Positions 13,807 through 64,000 of a DNA stretch of 64,000 nucleotides are shown in pieces. The stretch comes from Escherichia coli (GTDB lineage: Bacteria > Pseudomonadota > Gammaproteobacteria > Enterobacterales > Enterobacteriaceae), in the NCBI RefSeq assembly GCF_024298765.1, contig NZ_CP101210.1; one strand, written 5' to 3'. Both the position numbers and the translations under genes were made by a program. How positions within the stretch are numbered: position 1 is the stretch's first letter; each line of letters starts with the position of its first letter. Under the pieces are notes generated by a model that was given only the letters and a program-made list of their open reading frames with translations, was not told the origin of the DNA and did no database searches.

Positions 13807-14538
13807 ATGAAAAAAGGGAAAGTACGTAGCGCGTTGATAGCATTAGCCGTGCTGCTGGCCGGTTGTTCCAGTAATGCGCAGTATAATAGCAGTGCATCAG
13901 GCAATGTCGGCACCGCCTGGGGTGGGGATGTGCACTCAACGGTTCAGGGCGTATCTGCTGAGCGAGCTTGGCGCGATCCGGCAGAGATGATCGTTATTAG
14001 TTATTCGACGACTGTTCCTTCGGGCTACGACCGCGTTTATAGCATTCGTATTAACGAACTTGAATATGCTATTCGCGATGGTAATTTTAATTCTCTACCT
14101 ATTACGCGGGTTTATGATTCGTCAAATAATGAACCACGCTATATTGTCCATGCCAGAGTAGGAATGAATTATCAATTATATGTCCGCAATTACAGTCGTA
14201 ACACCAACTACGAGATCGTTGCTACGGTTGATGGCCTGGATGTGCTGAACGGCAAGCAAGGTTCGCTGAATAACAACGGCTATATTGTGAATGCCGGAGA
14301 TTCGTTAGCGATTAAAGGATTCCGCAAAGATAAACATACCGAAGCGGCTTTTCAGTTCGCCAACGTTGCTGATTCCTACGCAGCCAATTCGGCGCAAGGC
14401 GATGTGCGTAATACCGGTGTAATCGGCTTTGCCGCCTTTGAATTACAAGGCCCGGCGCAAAACGCGCTGCCGCCGTGCTCTGGACAAGCCTTTCCGGCAG
14501 ATAACAATGGCTATGCGCCGCCACCGTGTCGGAAATAG
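13807..14538 (+). CDS. Putative outer-membrane lipoprotein of unknown function (243 aa); candidate accessory gene
   Basis: ORF begins MKKGKVRSALIALAVLLAGCSS: a signal peptide with lipobox LLAG|C and Ser at +2. Mature part is Asn/Ser/Tyr/Gly-rich with two C-terminal Cys. Central portion looks AT-rich. Its own SD (gagggaa) and flanking terminators. Confidence 0.7.
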   Translation: MKKGKVRSALIALAVLLAGCSSNAQYNSSASGNVGTAWGGDVHSTVQGVSAERAWRDPAEMIVISYSTTVPSGYDRVYSIRINELEYAIRDGNFNSLPITRVYDSSNNEPRYIVHARVGMNYQLYVRNYSRNTNYEIVATVDGLDVLNGKQGSLNNNGYIVNAGDSLAIKGFRKDKHTEAAFQFANVADSYAANSAQGDVRNTGVIGFAAFELQGPAQNALPPCSGQAFPADNNGYAPPPCRK

Positions 14539-18734: not shown

Positions 18735-18759
18735 GGGCCGCGAAAGCGGCCCTTTTTTT
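18735..18759 (+). terminator. Rho-independent terminator of tktA
   Basis: gggccgcgaaagcggccc followed by ttttttt; the T-run overlaps the stop codon of the convergent SPFH gene. Confidence 0.65.
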
Positions 18760-19666
18760 ACTTAGTAGAGATAAACGGAACTGTACTGCCGGGGATCATG
18801 GTATCGGGTAGCTTACCGTCCCAACGCTCAGCAGTGGTGAGGGCAACAAGTCCGGGATTATCCCGCAGAGCTTCACCGCGCAGGCGGATCGCTTCTGCTT
18901 CAGCCGCACTTTTTAAACGAATAGTTTCAGCCTCTGCCGCGCCTCTTACGCGAATAGTCTCAGCTTCTGCTTTGGCTGCCGCCAGTTTACTGTCTGCTTC
19001 AGCCTGGGCCTGAGTTACTGCTATTTGCGCCTGGATTTTCTCTGTTTCCAGATTTTGCTTACGTGTGGCAATGGCGACTTCTGCTTTCATTCGATCTTCA
19101 ATCGATTTTTCATAAGCGTCAGAAAAATCAATATTTTCAATCTGGACACCATCAATCACCACCGGGCCAACAACGGCTTTACGCATTGCATTTTGCAGAT
19201 CCTGAACCAGTTTTGTACGATCCTGTACCGCGCTGATGGCGGTATATTGGCCGAAAACGTTCTCCAGTTGAGTTGGCAGCTGGCGGACGATCAGACGCTC
19301 TTTTAAAGATTCAATGGTGTTGTAGGTTGTATAAACTGCGCCAGCTTCTGAAGGTTTAATGTGGAAGCTGACTGATACTGTCATTTGTGCCGGTTGCTGG
19401 TCGCGGCTGTAGGCCTGTAATCCCTGATAAACCACAGCCTGATTACGCGTGGAAATTTTCTCCACGCTTTCCATAAAAGGGATCTTAAAACCCAGACCCG
19501 GCTCGGCAACTTTTACGATTTTTCCGTAGCGCAGCAAAATGCCGCGTTCACCTTCATTAACGGTGTAATACGAGAGAAATGGCAGCACAACCACGGCAAG
19601 CACGCCAATGACGATAGCAATAGATTTTTGTGGGCGAAATGAGGTTATTGAAACAGGTGCTTTCAT
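18758..19666 (-). CDS. SPFH/band-7 (prohibitin/HflC-like) membrane protein with C-terminal repeat-containing coiled coil (302 aa); candidate accessory gene
   Basis: ORF 18758..19666 with SD aaggaag 7 nt upstream; N-terminal TM helix (IAIVIGVLAVVVLPF) followed by an SPFH-like region; C-terminal AEAETIRVRGA/AEAETIRLKSA/AEAEAIRLRGE repeats. Confidence 0.8.
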   Translation of the reverse strand: MKAPVSITSFRPQKSIAIVIGVLAVVVLPFLSYYTVNEGERGILLRYGKIVKVAEPGLGFKIPFMESVEKISTRNQAVVYQGLQAYSRDQQPAQMTVSVSFHIKPSEAGAVYTTYNTIESLKERLIVRQLPTQLENVFGQYTAISAVQDRTKLVQDLQNAMRKAVVGPVVIDGVQIENIDFSDAYEKSIEDRMKAEVAIATRKQNLETEKIQAQIAVTQAQAEADSKLAAAKAEAETIRVRGAAEAETIRLKSAAEAEAIRLRGEALRDNPGLVALTTAERWDGKLPDTMIPGSTVPFISTK

Positions 19667-20514: not shown

Positions 20515-21903
20515 ATGGAAAACAAGTCTGCTCGTGCAAAGGTCCAGGCTTTTGGGGGCTTTTTGACGGCAATGGTCATCCCCAATATTGGTGCTTTTAT
20601 TGCCTGGGGTTTTATTACTGCGTTATTTATTCCCACCGGTTGGCTGCCTAACGAACATTTCGCCAAAATTGTCGGCCCGATGATTACCTATTTATTGCCC
20701 GTGATGATTGGTTCTACCGGTGGTCATCTGGCCGGCGGTAAACGCGGCGCGGTCATGGGCGGAATAGGTACTATTGGTGTGATCGTCGGCGCAGAGATCC
20801 CGATGTTCCTTGGCTCAATGATTATGGGGCCGCTCGGTGGTCTGGTGATTAAATATATCGACAAGGCGCTGGAAAAGCGGATCCCTGCTGGTTTTGAGAT
20901 GGTTATCAATAACTTCTCATTAGGTATCGTGGGGATGCTCCTTTGTCTGCTGGGTTTTGAAGTGATCGGCCCTGCGGTGTTAATTGCCAATACTTTCGTC
21001 AAAGAGTGTATTGAGGCGCTGGTACATGCGGGTTATCTGCCTTTGCTGTCAGTCATCAATGAACCGGCGAAAGTGCTTTTCCTTAATAATGCGATCGATC
21101 AGGGCGTCTATTACCCGTTGGGGATGCAACAGGCTTCAGTTAACGGTAAATCCATCTTCTTTATGGTGGCGTCCAACCCTGGGCCTGGCTTAGGACTGTT
21201 GCTGGCGTTTACTTTGTTTGGTAAAGGGATGAGTAAACGTTCTGCGCCCGGGGCGATGATTATTCACTTCCTCGGTGGGATCCACGAACTGTATTTCCCG
21301 TATGTGCTGATGAAGCCGCTGACCATTATTGCCATGATTGCGGGCGGTATGTCTGGCACCTGGATGTTTAACTTACTGGACGGTGGTCTGGTGGCTGGTC
21401 CAAGTCCGGGGTCTATCTTTGCTTACCTGGCACTGACGCCGAAAGGCTCGTTCCTGGCGACAATTGCCGGTGTTACGGTAGGTACCCTGGTGTCCTTTGC
21501 TATCACTTCCGTAATACTGAAGATGGAAAAAACGGTGGAAACGGAGAGCGAAGATGAGTTTGCTCAGTCAGCCAATGCGGTTAAGGCGATGAAACAAGAG
21601 GGTGCATTCTCGTTAAGCCGGGTTAAGCGAATCGCCTTTGTTTGCGATGCGGGGATGGGCTCCAGCGCGATGGGCGCAACCACCTTCCGTAAACGTCTGG
21701 AAAAAGCGGGGCTGGCAATTGAAGTAAAACATTACGCGATAGAAAACGTGCCTGCGGATGCGGATATCGTCGTTACTCACGCCAGTCTGGAAGGGCGCGT
21801 GAAACGTGTGACGGATAAACCACTGATATTGATTAATAACTATATTGGCGATCCAAAACTCGACACTTTATTTAATCAATTAACCGCTGAACATAAACAC
21901 TGA
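20515..21903 (+). CDS. cmtA: Mannitol-type PTS EIICB component CmtA (462 aa)
   Basis: ORF 20515..21903; polytopic membrane protein with a C-terminal EIIB-like region. Confidence 0.9.
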   Translation: MENKSARAKVQAFGGFLTAMVIPNIGAFIAWGFITALFIPTGWLPNEHFAKIVGPMITYLLPVMIGSTGGHLAGGKRGAVMGGIGTIGVIVGAEIPMFLGSMIMGPLGGLVIKYIDKALEKRIPAGFEMVINNFSLGIVGMLLCLLGFEVIGPAVLIANTFVKECIEALVHAGYLPLLSVINEPAKVLFLNNAIDQGVYYPLGMQQASVNGKSIFFMVASNPGPGLGLLLAFTLFGKGMSKRSAPGAMIIHFLGGIHELYFPYVLMKPLTIIAMIAGGMSGTWMFNLLDGGLVAGPSPGSIFAYLALTPKGSFLATIAGVTVGTLVSFAITSVILKMEKTVETESEDEFAQSANAVKAMKQEGAFSLSRVKRIAFVCDAGMGSSAMGATTFRKRLEKAGLAIEVKHYAIENVPADADIVVTHASLEGRVKRVTDKPLILINNYIGDPKLDTLFNQLTAEHKH

Positions 21904-42169: not shown

Positions 42170-42310
42170 GGTAAAGCCCTCACCGAAGCGAGGGCTTGAA
42201 GGAGAAGGGTTATGATGCGACTTGTCATCATACTGATTGTACTGTTACTCATAAGTTTCCCAGCTTATTAACAGTCAGTCTCAGGGGAGGAGTCATCCTC
42301 CCTTACCCTT
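42170..42310 (-). ncRNA. sibC: SibC antisense sRNA (antitoxin of ibsC); ends approximate
   Basis: Minus-strand sigma70-like promoter (TTGACA-17 nt-TAATTT) at 42318..42346 reads antisense across ibsC; minus-strand hairpin at about 42160..42190 could be its terminator. Boundaries inferred, not measured. Confidence 0.5.
42212..42271 (+). CDS. ibsC: Type I toxin IbsC-like small hydrophobic peptide (19 aa)
   Basis: ggagaagggtt SD then atgatgcgacttgtcatcatactgattgtactgttactcataagtttcccagcttattaa, translating MMRLVIILIVLLLISFPAY; serA-ygfA intergenic position matches the known ibsC/sibC locus. Confidence 0.6.
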   Translation: MMRLVIILIVLLLISFPAY

Positions 42311-42317
42311 ACTCACT

Positions 42318-42346
42318 AAATTAGGTTAAAGAATCAACGATGTCAA
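42318..42346 (-). promoter_or_regulatory. Putative sigma70 promoter of sibC
   Basis: Minus-strand ttgaca (plus 42341..42346), 17-nt spacer, taattt (plus 42318..42323). Confidence 0.4.
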
Positions 42347-42993: not shown

Positions 42994-43178
42994 GGAAATC
43001 TCCGAGATGCCGCCGCAGGCTGTAACCCTTGAACCCTTGGTTCAAGGTGAATGTGTCGTCGCAGTTTTAAGGCTTCTCGGACGGACCGAGCATGCTCACC
43101 AACCGCGGAGCGCCACATTCTTGTGGTATGAAATATCGGCTCAGGGGACTGGCCCGCTTGCGAACATCTCAGAGAAAT
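42994..43178 (-). ncRNA. ssrS: 6S RNA (SsrS), RNA polymerase-binding regulatory RNA
   Basis: Minus strand reads AUUUCUCUGAGAUGUUCGCAAGCGGGCCAGUCCCCUGAGCCGAUAUUUCAUACCACAAGAAUGUGGCGCUCCGCGG..., matching recalled E. coli 6S RNA; immediately upstream of ygfA. Confidence 0.85.
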
Positions 43179-58405: not shown

Positions 58406-59302
58406 GTGAAACAGGATCTGGCACGCATCGAGCAGTTTCTTGATGCTCTGTGGCTGGAAAAAAATCTGGCTGAAAATACGTTGAACGCTTACCGTCGCGA
58501 TCTGTCAATGATGGTGGAGTGGTTGCATCACCGCGGGTTGACGCTGGCGACGGCGCAAAGTGACGATTTGCAGGCATTACTGGCAGAACGGCTGGAGGGC
58601 GGGTATAAAGCCACCAGCTCAGCGCGTTTGCTGAGTGCAGTGCGCCGATTGTTCCAGTATCTTTATCGCGAAAAGTTTCGTGAAGATGATCCCAGTGCGC
58701 ATCTCGCTTCACCGAAATTGCCCCAGCGTTTGCCAAAAGATTTAAGCGAAGCGCAGGTCGAACGTTTATTACAGGCACCATTAATTGATCAGCCACTGGA
58801 GCTACGCGATAAAGCCATGCTTGAAGTGTTGTATGCTACCGGACTGCGTGTCTCTGAACTGGTCGGGCTGACAATGAGTGATATCAGCCTGCGTCAGGGC
58901 GTGGTGCGGGTCATTGGTAAAGGCAACAAAGAGCGCCTGGTGCCGTTAGGTGAAGAGGCGGTTTACTGGCTGGAAACCTATCTGGAACATGGGCGTCCGT
59001 GGCTGTTGAATGGTGTGTCAATTGACGTGTTGTTTCCCAGCCAGCGTGCGCAGCAGATGACGCGACAGACCTTCTGGCACCGCATTAAACATTATGCCGT
59101 GCTGGCGGGTATCGACAGCGAAAAGCTGTCACCGCATGTGTTGCGTCACGCTTTTGCCACTCACTTATTAAATCATGGTGCGGATTTGCGCGTGGTGCAG
59201 ATGCTACTGGGCCACAGCGATCTCTCCACCACGCAAATTTATACGCATGTCGCTACCGAGCGTCTGCGGCAACTTCATCAACAGCATCACCCGCGGGCGT
59301 GA
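58406..59302 (+). CDS. xerD: Chromosome dimer-resolution tyrosine recombinase XerD (298 aa)
   Basis: ORF 58406..59302 (GTG start); C-terminal RHAFATHLL...GHSDLSTTQIYTHV catalytic region. Housekeeping recombinase, not a mobile-element integrase. Confidence 0.9.
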   Translation: MKQDLARIEQFLDALWLEKNLAENTLNAYRRDLSMMVEWLHHRGLTLATAQSDDLQALLAERLEGGYKATSSARLLSAVRRLFQYLYREKFREDDPSAHLASPKLPQRLPKDLSEAQVERLLQAPLIDQPLELRDKAMLEVLYATGLRVSELVGLTMSDISLRQGVVRVIGKGNKERLVPLGEEAVYWLETYLEHGRPWLLNGVSIDVLFPSQRAQQMTRQTFWHRIKHYAVLAGIDSEKLSPHVLRHAFATHLLNHGADLRVVQMLLGHSDLSTTQIYTHVATERLRQLHQQHHPRA

Positions 59303-59326
59303 TGTCTGAAAAGAACAGGAAAATTT

Positions 59327-60037
59327 ATGAAGAAAGGTTTTATGTTATTTACCTTGTTGGCAGCGTTTTCAGGCTTTGTTCAGGCTGATGACGCGGCAAT
59401 TCAACAAACGTTAGCCAAAATGGGCATCAAAAGCAGCGATATTCAGCCCGCGCCCGTAGCTGGCATGAAGACAGTTCTGACTAACAGCGGTGTGTTGTAC
59501 ATCACCGATGATGGTAAACATATCATTCAGGGGCCAATGTATGACGTTAGTGGCACGGCTCCGGTCAATGTCACCAATAAGATGCTGTTAAAGCAGTTGA
59601 ATGCGCTTGAAAAAGAGATGATCGTTTATAAAGCGCCGCAGGAAAAACACGTCATCACCGTGTTTACTGATATTACCTGTGGTTACTGCCACAAACTGCA
59701 TGAGCAAATGGCAGACTATAACGCGCTGGGGATCACCGTGCGTTATCTTGCTTTCCCGCGCCAGGGGCTGGACAGCGATGCAGAGAAAGAAATGAAAGCT
59801 ATCTGGTGTGCGAAAGATAAAAACAAAGCGTTTGATGATGTGATGGCAGGTAAAAGCGTCGCACCAGCCAGCTGCGACGTGGATATTGCCGACCATTACG
59901 CACTTGGCGTCCAGCTTGGCGTTAGCGGTACTCCGGCAGTTGTGCTGAGCAATGGCACACTTGTTCCGGGTTACCAGCCGCCGAAAGACATGAAAGAATT
60001 CCTCGACGAACACCAAAAAATGACCAGCGGTAAATAA
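59327..60037 (+). CDS. dsbC: Periplasmic disulfide isomerase DsbC (236 aa)
   Basis: ORF 59327..60037; signal peptide and CGYC active site. Confidence 0.9.
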   Translation: MKKGFMLFTLLAAFSGFVQADDAAIQQTLAKMGIKSSDIQPAPVAGMKTVLTNSGVLYITDDGKHIIQGPMYDVSGTAPVNVTNKMLLKQLNALEKEMIVYKAPQEKHVITVFTDITCGYCHKLHEQMADYNALGITVRYLAFPRQGLDSDAEKEMKAIWCAKDKNKAFDDVMAGKSVAPASCDVDIADHYALGVQLGVSGTPAVVLSNGTLVPGYQPPKDMKEFLDEHQKMTSGK

Positions 60038-60042
60038 TTCGC

Positions 60043-61776
60043 GTGAAACAACAGATACAACTTCGTCGCCGAGAAGTCGATGAAACGGCCGACTTGCCCG
60101 CTGAATTGCCTCCCTTGCTGCGCCGTTTATATGCCAGCCGGGGTGTGCGTAGCGCGCAGGAACTGGAACGCAGTGTTAAAGGCATGCTGCCCTGGCAGCA
60201 ACTGAGCGGCGTCGAAAAGGCCGTTGAGATCCTTTACAACGCTTTTCGCGAAGGAACGCGGATTATTGTGGTCGGTGATTTCGACGCCGACGGTGCGACC
60301 AGCACGGCTCTAAGCGTGCTGGCGATGCGCTCGCTTGGTTGCAGCAATATCGACTACCTGGTTCCAAACCGTTTCGAAGACGGTTACGGCTTAAGTCCGG
60401 AAGTAGTCGATCAGGCTCATGCCCGTGGCGCGCAGTTAATTGTCACGGTGGATAACGGTATTTCCTCCCATGCGGGGGTTGAACACGCTCGTTCGTTGGG
60501 CATTCCGGTTATTGTTACCGATCACCATTTGCCAGGCGACACATTACCCGCAGCGGAAGCGATCATTAACCCTAACTTGCGCGACTGTAATTTCCCGTCG
60601 AAATCACTGGCAGGCGTGGGTGTGGCGTTTTATCTGATGCTGGCGCTGCGCACCTTTTTGCGCGATCAGGGCTGGTTTGATGAGCGCGGTATTGCAATCC
60701 CTAATCTGGCGGAGCTGCTGGATCTGGTGGCGCTGGGGACGGTGGCGGATGTAGTGCCACTGGACGCCAATAACCGCATTCTGACCTGGCAGGGGATGAG
60801 TCGCATCCGTGCCGGAAAGTGCCGTCCGGGGATTAAAGCGCTGCTGGAAGTGGCCAATCGCGATCCACAAAAACTCGCCGCCAGCGATTTAGGTTTTGCG
60901 CTGGGGCCACGTCTCAATGCTGCCGGGCGACTGGACGATATGTCCGTTGGCGTGGCGCTGTTGCTGTGCGACAACATCGGCGAAGCGCGCGTGCTGGCAA
61001 ATGAACTCGATGCGCTAAACCAGACGCGAAAAGAGATCGAACAGGGAATGCAAGTTGAAGCCCTGACCTTGTGCGAGAAACTGGAGCGCAGCCGCGACAC
61101 ACTACCCGGCGGGCTGGCAATGTATCACCCCGAATGGCATCAGGGCGTTGTCGGTATTCTGGCTTCGCGCATCAAAGAGCGTTTTCATCGTCCGGTTATC
61201 GCCTTTGCGCCAGCTGGTGATGGTACGCTGAAAGGTTCCGGTCGCTCCATTCAGGGGCTGCATATGCGTGATGCGCTGGAGCGATTAGACACACTCTACC
61301 CCGGCATGATGCTCAAGTTTGGCGGTCATGCGATGGCGGCGGGTTTGTCGCTGGAAGAGGATAAATTCGAACTCTTTCAACAACGGTTTGGCGAACTGGT
61401 TACGGAGTGGTTGGACCCTTCGCTATTGCAAGGCGAAGTGGTGTCGGACGGTCCGTTAAGTCCGGCCGAAATGACCATGGAAGTGGCGCAGCTGTTGCGC
61501 GATGCTGGCCCGTGGGGGCAGATGTTCCCGGAGCCGCTGTTTGATGGTCATTTTCGTCTGCTGCAACAGCGGCTGGTGGGCGAACGTCATTTGAAAGTCA
61601 TGGTCGAACCGGTCGGCGGCGGTCCACTGCTGGACGGGATTGCTTTTAATGTCGATACCGCCCTCTGGCCGGATAACGGCGTGCGCGAAGTGCAACTGGC
61701 TTACAGGCTCGATATCAACGAGTTTCGCGGCAACCGCAGCCTGCAAATTATCATCGACAATATCTGGCCAATTTAG
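60043..61776 (+). CDS. recJ: ssDNA-specific 5'-3' exonuclease RecJ (577 aa)
   Basis: ORF 60043..61776; DHH motifs (GDFDADG, DHH). Confidence 0.9.
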   Translation: MKQQIQLRRREVDETADLPAELPPLLRRLYASRGVRSAQELERSVKGMLPWQQLSGVEKAVEILYNAFREGTRIIVVGDFDADGATSTALSVLAMRSLGCSNIDYLVPNRFEDGYGLSPEVVDQAHARGAQLIVTVDNGISSHAGVEHARSLGIPVIVTDHHLPGDTLPAAEAIINPNLRDCNFPSKSLAGVGVAFYLMLALRTFLRDQGWFDERGIAIPNLAELLDLVALGTVADVVPLDANNRILTWQGMSRIRAGKCRPGIKALLEVANRDPQKLAASDLGFALGPRLNAAGRLDDMSVGVALLLCDNIGEARVLANELDALNQTRKEIEQGMQVEALTLCEKLERSRDTLPGGLAMYHPEWHQGVVGILASRIKERFHRPVIAFAPAGDGTLKGSGRSIQGLHMRDALERLDTLYPGMMLKFGGHAMAAGLSLEEDKFELFQQRFGELVTEWLDPSLLQGEVVSDGPLSPAEMTMEVAQLLRDAGPWGQMFPEPLFDGHFRLLQQRLVGERHLKVMVEPVGGGPLLDGIAFNVDTALWPDNGVREVQLAYRLDINEFRGNRSLQIIIDNIWPI

Positions 61777-61866
61777 CGTCATCTTCTCTATAAAAAAGAG
61801 CGTGGATTGGGTACAATCCCGCTCTTATCACCGCATTTTGACTAGCTCAATAAAAGAAATCAGACC

Positions 61867-62965
61867 ATGTTTGAAATTAATCCGGTAAATAATCGCATTC
61901 AGGACCTCACGGAACGCTCCGACGTTCTTAGGGGGTATCTTTGACTACGACGCCAAGAAAGAGCGTCTGGAAGAAGTAAACGCCGAGCTGGAACAGCCGG
62001 ATGTCTGGAACGAACCCGAACGCGCACAGGCGCTGGGTAAAGAGCGTTCCTCCCTCGAAGCCGTTGTCGACACCCTCGACCAAATGAAACAGGGGCTGGA
62101 AGATGTTTCTGGTCTGCTGGAACTGGCTGTAGAAGCTGACGACGAAGAAACCTTTAACGAAGCCGTTGCTGAACTCGACGCTCTGGAAGAAAAACTGGCG
62201 CAGCTTGAGTTCCGCCGTATGTTCTCTGGCGAATATGACAGCGCCGACTGCTACCTCGATATTCAGGCGGGGTCTGGCGGTACGGAAGCACAGGACTGGG
62301 CGAGCATGCTTGAGCGTATGTATCTGCGCTGGGCAGAATCGCGTGGTTTCAAAACTGAAATCATCGAAGAGTCGGAAGGTGAAGTGGCGGGTATTAAATC
62401 CGTAACGATCAAAATCTCCGGCGATTACGCTTATGGCTGGCTGCGTACAGAAACCGGCGTTCACCGCCTGGTGCGTAAGAGCCCGTTTGACTCCGGCGGT
62501 CGTCGCCACACGTCGTTCAGCTCCGCGTTTGTTTACCCGGAAGTTGATGATGATATCGATATCGAAATCAATCCGGCGGATCTGCGCATCGACGTTTATC
62601 GCGCATCTGGCGCGGGCGGTCAGCACGTTAACCGTACCGAATCTGCGGTGCGTATTACTCACATCCCAACCGGGATCGTGACCCAATGCCAGAACGACCG
62701 TTCCCAGCACAAGAACAAAGACCAGGCCATGAAGCAGATGAAAGCGAAGCTTTATGAACTGGAGATGCAGAAGAAAAATGCCGAGAAACAGGCGATGGAA
62801 GATAATAAATCCGACATCGGCTGGGGCAGCCAGATTCGTTCTTATGTCCTTGATGACTCCCGCATTAAAGATCTGCGTACCGGGGTAGAAACCCGCAACA
62901 CGCAGGCCGTGCTGGACGGCAGCCTGGATCAATTTATCGAAGCAAGTTTGAAAGCAGGGTTATGA
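61867..62965 (+). CDS. prfB: Peptide chain release factor 2 PrfB; requires programmed +1 frameshift, join(61867..61941, 61943..62965)
   Basis: Frame 0 reads [25 protein letters not shown] then an in-frame TGA at 61942..61944 within cttagggggtatctttgac; the +1 frame continues [12 protein letters not shown]... to 62965, and contains the GGQ motif. ORF track only reports the 3' part from 62084. Confidence 0.9.
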
Positions 62966-62974
62966 GGAACCAAC

Positions 62975-64000
62975 ATGTCTGAACAACACGCACAGGGCGC
63001 TGACGCGGTAGTCGATCTTAACAATGAACTGAAAACGCGTCGTGAGAAGCTGGCGAACCTGCGCGAGCAGGGGATTGCCTTCCCGAACGATTTCCGTCGC
63101 GATCATACCTCTGACCAATTGCACGCAGAATTCGACGGTAAAGAGAACGAAGAACTGGAAGCGCTGAACATCGAAGTCGCCGTTGCTGGCCGCATGATGA
63201 CCCGCCGTATTATGGGTAAAGCGTCTTTCGTTACCCTGCAGGATGTGGGTGGCCGCATTCAGCTGTACGTTGCCCGTGACGATCTGCCGGAAGGCGTTTA
63301 CAACGAGCAGTTCAAAAAATGGGACCTCGGCGATATCCTCGGCGCGAAAGGTAAACTGTTCAAAACCAAAACTGGCGAACTGTCTATCCACTGTACCGAG
63401 CTGCGTCTGCTGACCAAAGCACTGCGTCCGCTGCCGGATAAATTCCACGGCTTGCAGGACCAGGAAGCGCGCTATCGTCAGCGTTATCTGGATCTCATCT
63501 CTAACGATGAATCCCGCAACACCTTTAAAGTGCGCTCGCAGATCCTCTCTGGTATTCGCCAGTTCATGGTGAACCGCGGCTTTATGGAAGTTGAAACGCC
63601 GATGATGCAGGTGATCCCTGGCGGTGCCGCTGCGCGTCCGTTTATCACTCACCATAACGCGCTGGATCTCGACATGTACCTGCGTATCGCGCCGGAACTG
63701 TACCTCAAGCGTCTGGTGGTCGGTGGCTTCGAGCGTGTATTCGAAATCAACCGTAACTTCCGTAACGAAGGTATTTCCGTACGTCATAACCCAGAGTTCA
63801 CCATGATGGAACTCTATATGGCTTACGCAGATTACAAAGATCTGATCGAGCTGACCGAATCGCTGTTCCGTACTCTGGCACAGGATATTCTCGGTAAGAC
63901 GGAAGTGACCTACGGCGACGTGACGCTGGACTTCGGTAAACCGTTCGAAAAACTGACCATGCGTGAAGCGATCAAGAAATATCGCCCGGAAACCGACATG
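62975..64000 (+). CDS. lysS: Lysyl-tRNA synthetase LysS, N-terminal part; gene runs off the right edge of the window
   Basis: ATG at 62975 followed by [33 protein letters not shown], in frame to position 64000. Confidence 0.9.

Follow-up and report, generated by a model that had tools for sequence, protein, structure and literature searches.

The prfB gene in a 64-kb stretch of Escherichia coli DNA and its intact programmed +1 frameshift site

The feature at positions 61867 to 62965 of the window, by which we mean the whole 64,000-nucleotide stretch of Escherichia coli DNA analyzed here, is almost certainly an ordinary E. coli prfB gene, encoding release factor 2 (RF2), with an intact textbook self-regulating +1 frameshift site. 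An earlier note, made from the DNA sequence, had described an intact frameshift site at this position and had interpreted it as the classic autoregulatory site of RF2. Both the observation and the interpretation are correct, supported by RF2 homology across the junction, by the RefSeq annotation, and by conservation of the site; the feature is already known. No result of the analysis speaks against this reading. Unless stated otherwise, all features described below lie on the plus strand.

Layout of the shift site and identity of the joined product

Translation from the prfB start codon (ATG, 61867-61869) yields a zero-frame product of 25 residues, followed by a stop. These 25 codons form the first coding segment (61867..61941), which is also the first CDS piece in the annotation of E. 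coli strain 104. Its last codon, CUU (CTT at 61939-61941, Leu25), is the P-site codon of the shift, and the in-frame UGA at 61942-61944 is codon 26 of the zero frame. Together with the following C61945, this UGA forms UGAC (61942..61945), a weak, RF2-specific stop context (PMC12421855). An internal Shine-Dalgarno-like AGGGGG (61930..61935), the frameshift stimulator, ends 3 nt upstream of CUU, and the intervening spacer is the E-site codon UAU (TAT at 61936..61938), which encodes Tyr24. The slippery sequence CUU U occupies 61939..61942, where peptidyl-tRNA-Leu would re-pair from CUU to UUU (mechanism in PMC12421855), and U61942 (T61942 in the DNA) is the single base omitted from the coding join. 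The earlier note had placed the UGA at codon 26 within CUU UGA C, preceded by an AGGGGG; both elements are present, the former as CTT TGA C at 61939-61945 and the latter at 61930-61935.

The second coding segment, assigned to the +1 frame by homology and annotation, extends from 61943 to 62965 and comprises codons 26 to 365 and the stop codon UGA (62963-62965). This frame is free of stops from 61889 up to the TGA at 62963-62965, the preceding stop being a TAA at 61886. The join(61867..61941,61943..62965) therefore measures 1098 nt, that is, 365 codons plus the stop. It may be observed in passing that the terminator of prfB itself, UGA at 62963-62965, is an RF2-specific stop codon.

The composite motif AGGGGGNNNCTTTGAC was found once in the 64-kb window, compared with 0.00 copies expected from 100 dinucleotide-preserving shuffles. 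The heptamer CTTTGAC alone occurred 13 times versus 8.2 expected and is uninformative by itself; only the composite motif with its Shine-Dalgarno-like element is significant within the window.

The joined 365-amino-acid translation was collinear with the solved E. coli RF2 chains over residues 1 to 365, with no gap through the L25/D26 junction. The match to PDB entry 1gqe (E=8e-241) differed solely at residue 297 (L here versus V), and the matches to 1ml5 and eight further entries (E=1e-240) differed solely at residue 246 (A here versus T). The earlier note had proposed this alignment of the join to RF2 as its own check, and the match crosses the junction rather than failing there. With the NCBIfam model TIGR00020 (prfB), the joined product scored 525.9 bits (cutoff, 370), whereas RF1 models gave 304 to 306 bits, below their cutoffs of 400 to 423. 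Pfam assigned PCRF (PF03462) to residues 31 to 219 and RF-1 (PF00472) to residues 228 to 337. The tripeptide SPF, the RF2-specific stop codon recognition motif, was read from the sequence at residues 205 to 207 (62480..62488), as was the GGQ motif, which catalyzes peptidyl-tRNA hydrolysis, at residues 250 to 252 (62615..62623). Every sequence feature that was tested for RF2 membership and for the shift site was found.

In the RefSeq/PGAP annotation of identical DNA in strain 104 (NZ_CP029164.1), prfB is a two-piece CDS labeled "programmed frameshift" (WP_001701073.1) that covers exactly 61867..62965. A mechanical list of open reading frames (ORFs) instead contains a 25-amino-acid ORF (61867..61944) and a 293-amino-acid ORF (62084..62965) that opens with the earliest ATG in the +1 frame, just as the earlier note had remarked in stating that an ORF caller reports only a truncated 293-residue product. 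As both ORFs are present in that list, the locus could be read as two independent genes, a small ORF of 25 codons at 61867-61944 and an N-terminally shorter RF2 of 293 residues from the ATG at 62084. However, residues 1 to 72 of the joined product match the structure of full-length, 365-residue E. coli RF2 residue for residue, RF2 homology spans the junction even in homologues that are only 28% identical, and conserved RF2 domain 1 is encoded in the +1 frame of 61943-62083, which contains no stop. A pair of separate genes is thus extremely improbable, and the 293-residue ORF at 62084..62965 is an artifact of overlooking the frameshift and not a separate gene.

Pipelines that are blind to recoding yield precisely this pair at prfB, a 25-residue ORF and a truncated RF2 of 293 residues. 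As such pipelines misreport the gene, prfB is to be written as the join given above. The practical value of the finding lies in correct annotation; the site itself, which virtually all E. coli genomes share, is a textbook example and brings no new biology.

Conservation within E. coli and across bacterial phyla

The interval from 61700 to 63100 (1401 bases) matched many E. coli chromosomes at 100% identity, and it had a match in 5425 of the 5426 complete E. coli genomes, always as a single copy and under recJ, prfB, and lysS. In strain 104, a chicken isolate from China, prfB is preceded by xerD-dsbC-recJ and followed by lysS-idi. Aligned with the chromosome of this strain, the window showed two mismatches, at 20930 and 42996, within its first 50,000 bases, and the part from 58700 to 64000 was free of mismatches. 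The window is unremarkable E. coli chromosomal DNA. The mismatch at 42996 falls on the penultimate base of the 6S RNA gene.

A 50-nt probe centered on the shift site was found at 99% identity or higher in 4410 E. coli records and at 95 to 99% identity in a further 1012. In the three variant E. coli records that were sampled, all changes lay outside the shift motif: a synonymous TAC/TAT change at codon 27, a GCC/ACC change at codon 29 (one strain), and a change of one base in the 5' leader. The codon 29 variant belongs to E. coli GF131 (locus L002), in which, aligned to 61952, a rare GCC to ACC substitution replaces Ala29 with Thr three codons past the shift site; codon 27 of this strain also shows the TAC/TAT change, which is synonymous and common. 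The recJ-prfB-lysS stretch was unmatched in one of the 5426 complete genomes, the 50-nt probe was missing in four, and one match to the E. coli prfB region was on a record labeled as a plasmid. The genomes without a match and the plasmid-labeled record may be assembly or labeling oddities, or they may be real variants.

Conservation across species was assessed by scanning one genome per species (100,044 species, 298 Gb) for the pattern TNAGGGGGNNNCTTTGAC, which matched at least 120 loci. The pattern fixed the bases of the motif, so that their invariance in the sample is by construction, and left the spacer free. A scan anchored on the motif shows where the motif occurs and not what share of prfB genes carry it, and prevalence was therefore taken from the literature: the prfB frameshift is needed in 64% of 12,753 bacterial genomes (PMC12421855). 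The reported consensus is AGGGGG, 3 nt, and CTTT, with a conserved C after the stop; the stop is nearly always TGA and never TAG, and the stops at these sites are exclusively RF2 readable. Actinomycetota, Mycoplasmatota, and Thermotogota are reported to be without the prfB frameshift site (PMC12421855).

The listed loci span Gammaproteobacteria, Betaproteobacteria, Bacillota, Bacteroidota, Fusobacteriota, Deinococcota, Myxococcota, Gemmatimonadota, and others. Among the matches listed, 110 of 120 were RF2 homologues, with identities to the present RF2 of 28 to 99.7% (median, 57%), and one further match was an RF2 gene that runs off the locus edge. In 101 of the 110 RF2 loci among the matches listed, the alignment placed the site exactly at the position of the E. 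coli junction. The spacer codon in these 110 listed loci was most often TAT (55 loci), followed by TCT (26), TAC (11), CAT (7), and TTT (6). Its third base was T in 87% of the listed RF2 loci (1.40 bits), compared with mostly less than 0.4 bits at adjacent third codon positions. Conservation of a spacer that the scan left free points to selection acting on the nucleotides in addition to the protein. The conservation of the shift site, which the earlier note had asked to be confirmed, thus holds both within E. coli and across phyla.

The remaining nine matches among those listed were not RF2 genes and were set aside as chance occurrences, their number being close to the expectation for a 14-base pattern in 298 Gb. 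Five of them (L082, L055, L081, L059, and L090), chosen for long downstream ORFs or for an exact E. coli 16-mer, were rechecked, and no RF2 homology was found in these loci. One, from a Cryomorphaceae metagenome-assembled genome (L082, 7237-7254), contains the exact E. coli 16-mer AGGGGGTATCTTTGAC in an AT-rich, intergenic-looking stretch. RF2 homology was sought across this 10-kb locus and none was found; given the size of the database, the 16-mer is most likely a chance match.

These data also bear on the reading of the frame break as a sequencing or assembly error, or as an inactivating mutation that would make prfB a pseudogene. To a naive ORF caller, a disruption of the frame by one base does resemble an indel or a pseudogene. 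However, the same sequence is present in the independent assemblies of all but one of the 5426 complete E. coli genomes, the break falls exactly within the canonical AGGGGG-N3-CTTTGAC motif, and the motif is equally placed in at least 110 RF2 genes of distant species. In addition, E. coli cannot live without RF2. An error or a pseudogene, to which we assign next to no probability, is already refuted by the data from the E. coli population and from other species.

Zero-frame decoding of the UGA without a frameshift, whether by readthrough or by selenocysteine insertion, is less probable still: although UGA is the most readthrough-prone codon and also the selenocysteine codon, the next zero-frame stop lies 32 codons past it, more than 30 zero-frame stops precede 62965, and the encoded sequence is unrelated to RF2, which is encoded in the +1 frame only. 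As the zero frame is closed and holds no RF2-like sequence, both forms of zero-frame decoding are excluded.

Mechanism and autoregulation of the +1 shift

The steps of the programmed +1 frameshift have been established in E. coli by published work, summarized in PMC12421855, and we infer them for the present strain. Ribosomes would initiate at the AUG at 61867 and read 25 codons, whereupon the UGA would enter the A site while CUU, bound by peptidyl-tRNA-Leu, occupies the P site. With RF2 abundant, the UGA would be read and the 25-residue peptide released. With RF2 scarce, the ribosome would pause on UGAC, in which the UGA is a weak stop because it is followed by C. The AGGGGG would pair with the 16S rRNA at its anti-Shine-Dalgarno tail, the E-site tRNA would be displaced, and tRNA-Leu would slip from CUU to UUU. 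Decoding would resume with GAC (Asp26) and yield RF2 at its full length of 365 residues. As the outcome of the shift depends on the level of RF2, the protein would set the rate of its own synthesis through negative autoregulation.

Shift efficiency at the identical E. coli site has been reported to be inverse to RF2 concentration (Craigen and Caskey 1986, as relayed in PMC12421855). Published efficiencies for this E. coli sequence are roughly 20 to 50%. Ribosome profiling of the native E. coli locus put frameshifting at approximately 28% in K-12 and approximately 21% when the allele was that of E. coli B (Ala246), and deletion of RF3 raised prfB frameshifting in K-12 to approximately 47% (PMC5373646). 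The gene studied here likewise encodes Ala246 (codon GCA at 62603..62605), seen as A versus T in the alignment to the K-12 sequence 1ml5. The canonical, more active RF2 allele is Ala246, which E. coli B shares with other lineages, whereas Thr246 is unique to K-12 strains and gives a less active RF2 (PMC5373646). The window therefore does not derive from a K-12 laboratory strain. We consider it very unlikely either that the 25-residue termination peptide has a function of its own or that the Ala246 allele shifts the frameshift set point measurably relative to K-12; the sequence hints at neither, and the published profiling values for the two alleles are only approximately 21% and 28%.

The predicted fold of the RNA from 61900 to 62020, examined for a structured stimulator, was indistinguishable from those of shuffled sequences (z = -0.67). 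To our knowledge, no downstream RNA structure is expected or needed for the prfB shift site. An Rfam scan of the whole window at gathering thresholds placed no RNA family at the shift site, finding only 6S and SIB RNAs elsewhere, and no rRNA gene was detected in the window. E. coli is known to have both the anti-Shine-Dalgarno tail on its 16S rRNA and a tRNA-Leu that can re-pair with UUU. In a promoter scan of 61500-63100, the single promoter-like site lay within coding sequence, and a terminator scan of the same interval returned one terminator-like hairpin (61819-61804, minus strand). Neither count exceeded that in shuffled sequences, and both are uninformative on the prfB promoter.

Genomic neighbors and comparison with known systems

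The lysS gene (lysine--tRNA ligase; 62975..64000 in the window) starts with an ATG at 62975, 9 nt after the prfB stop, and a GAGG at 62965-62968 overlaps the final base of that stop. Judging from this spacing, prfB and lysS probably share an operon; the 9-nt gap and the overlapping GAGG suggest cotranscription and possibly translational coupling.

Elsewhere in the window, Rfam identified the 6S RNA gene ssrS (42995-43178, minus strand; 139.7 bits) and a SIB antitoxin RNA (42196-42346, minus strand; 136.5 bits), opposite which lies ibsC (42212-42271, plus strand), a gene annotated as encoding a type I toxin. A hypothetical protein of 243 amino acids (13807-14538, plus strand) is encoded in the gap of approximately 1 kb between speA and speB, and a search of this protein against Pfam gave no match. 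The corresponding gap in K-12 is much shorter, and the larger gap may therefore represent a strain-variable insertion. Between tkt and cmtB lies a gene of the SPFH/Band 7 (prohibitin) family (18758-19666, minus strand; PF01145, E = 3.5e-30).

The site described here is itself the type example of programmed +1 frameshifting in bacteria and not merely a relative of it. The known E. coli system has the same gene with recJ upstream and lysS downstream, a UGA at codon 26, the sequence AGGGGG UAU CUU UGA C, and a product of 365 amino acids; prfB of K-12 differs in encoding Thr246 where Ala246 is found here, but its shift site is identical. According to PMC12421855, through which we cite the original reports (Craigen et al. 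1985; Craigen and Caskey 1986), the E. coli prfB frameshift has been known since 1985. The prfB sites of other bacteria share the motif architecture and the position in the protein with the E. coli site, whereas the spacer codon and the length of the N-terminal leader vary.

Two further systems are alike in part. Eukaryotic antizyme (OAZ) likewise controls its own synthesis through a +1 shift at an in-frame UGA, with an efficiency that is set by the product of the pathway. However, the OAZ shift senses polyamine concentration and not a release factor, it depends on a downstream pseudoknot and upstream elements instead of Shine-Dalgarno pairing, and the protein is unrelated. E. coli dnaX likewise has an internal Shine-Dalgarno-like stimulator upstream of its slippery site. 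In contrast to prfB, dnaX shifts in the -1 direction on the slippery heptamer A AAA AAG, with a longer Shine-Dalgarno spacing and a downstream hairpin, and it makes two functional products instead of acting as an on/off autoregulator. The dnaX frameshift is one of the three established in K-12 (PMC5373646).
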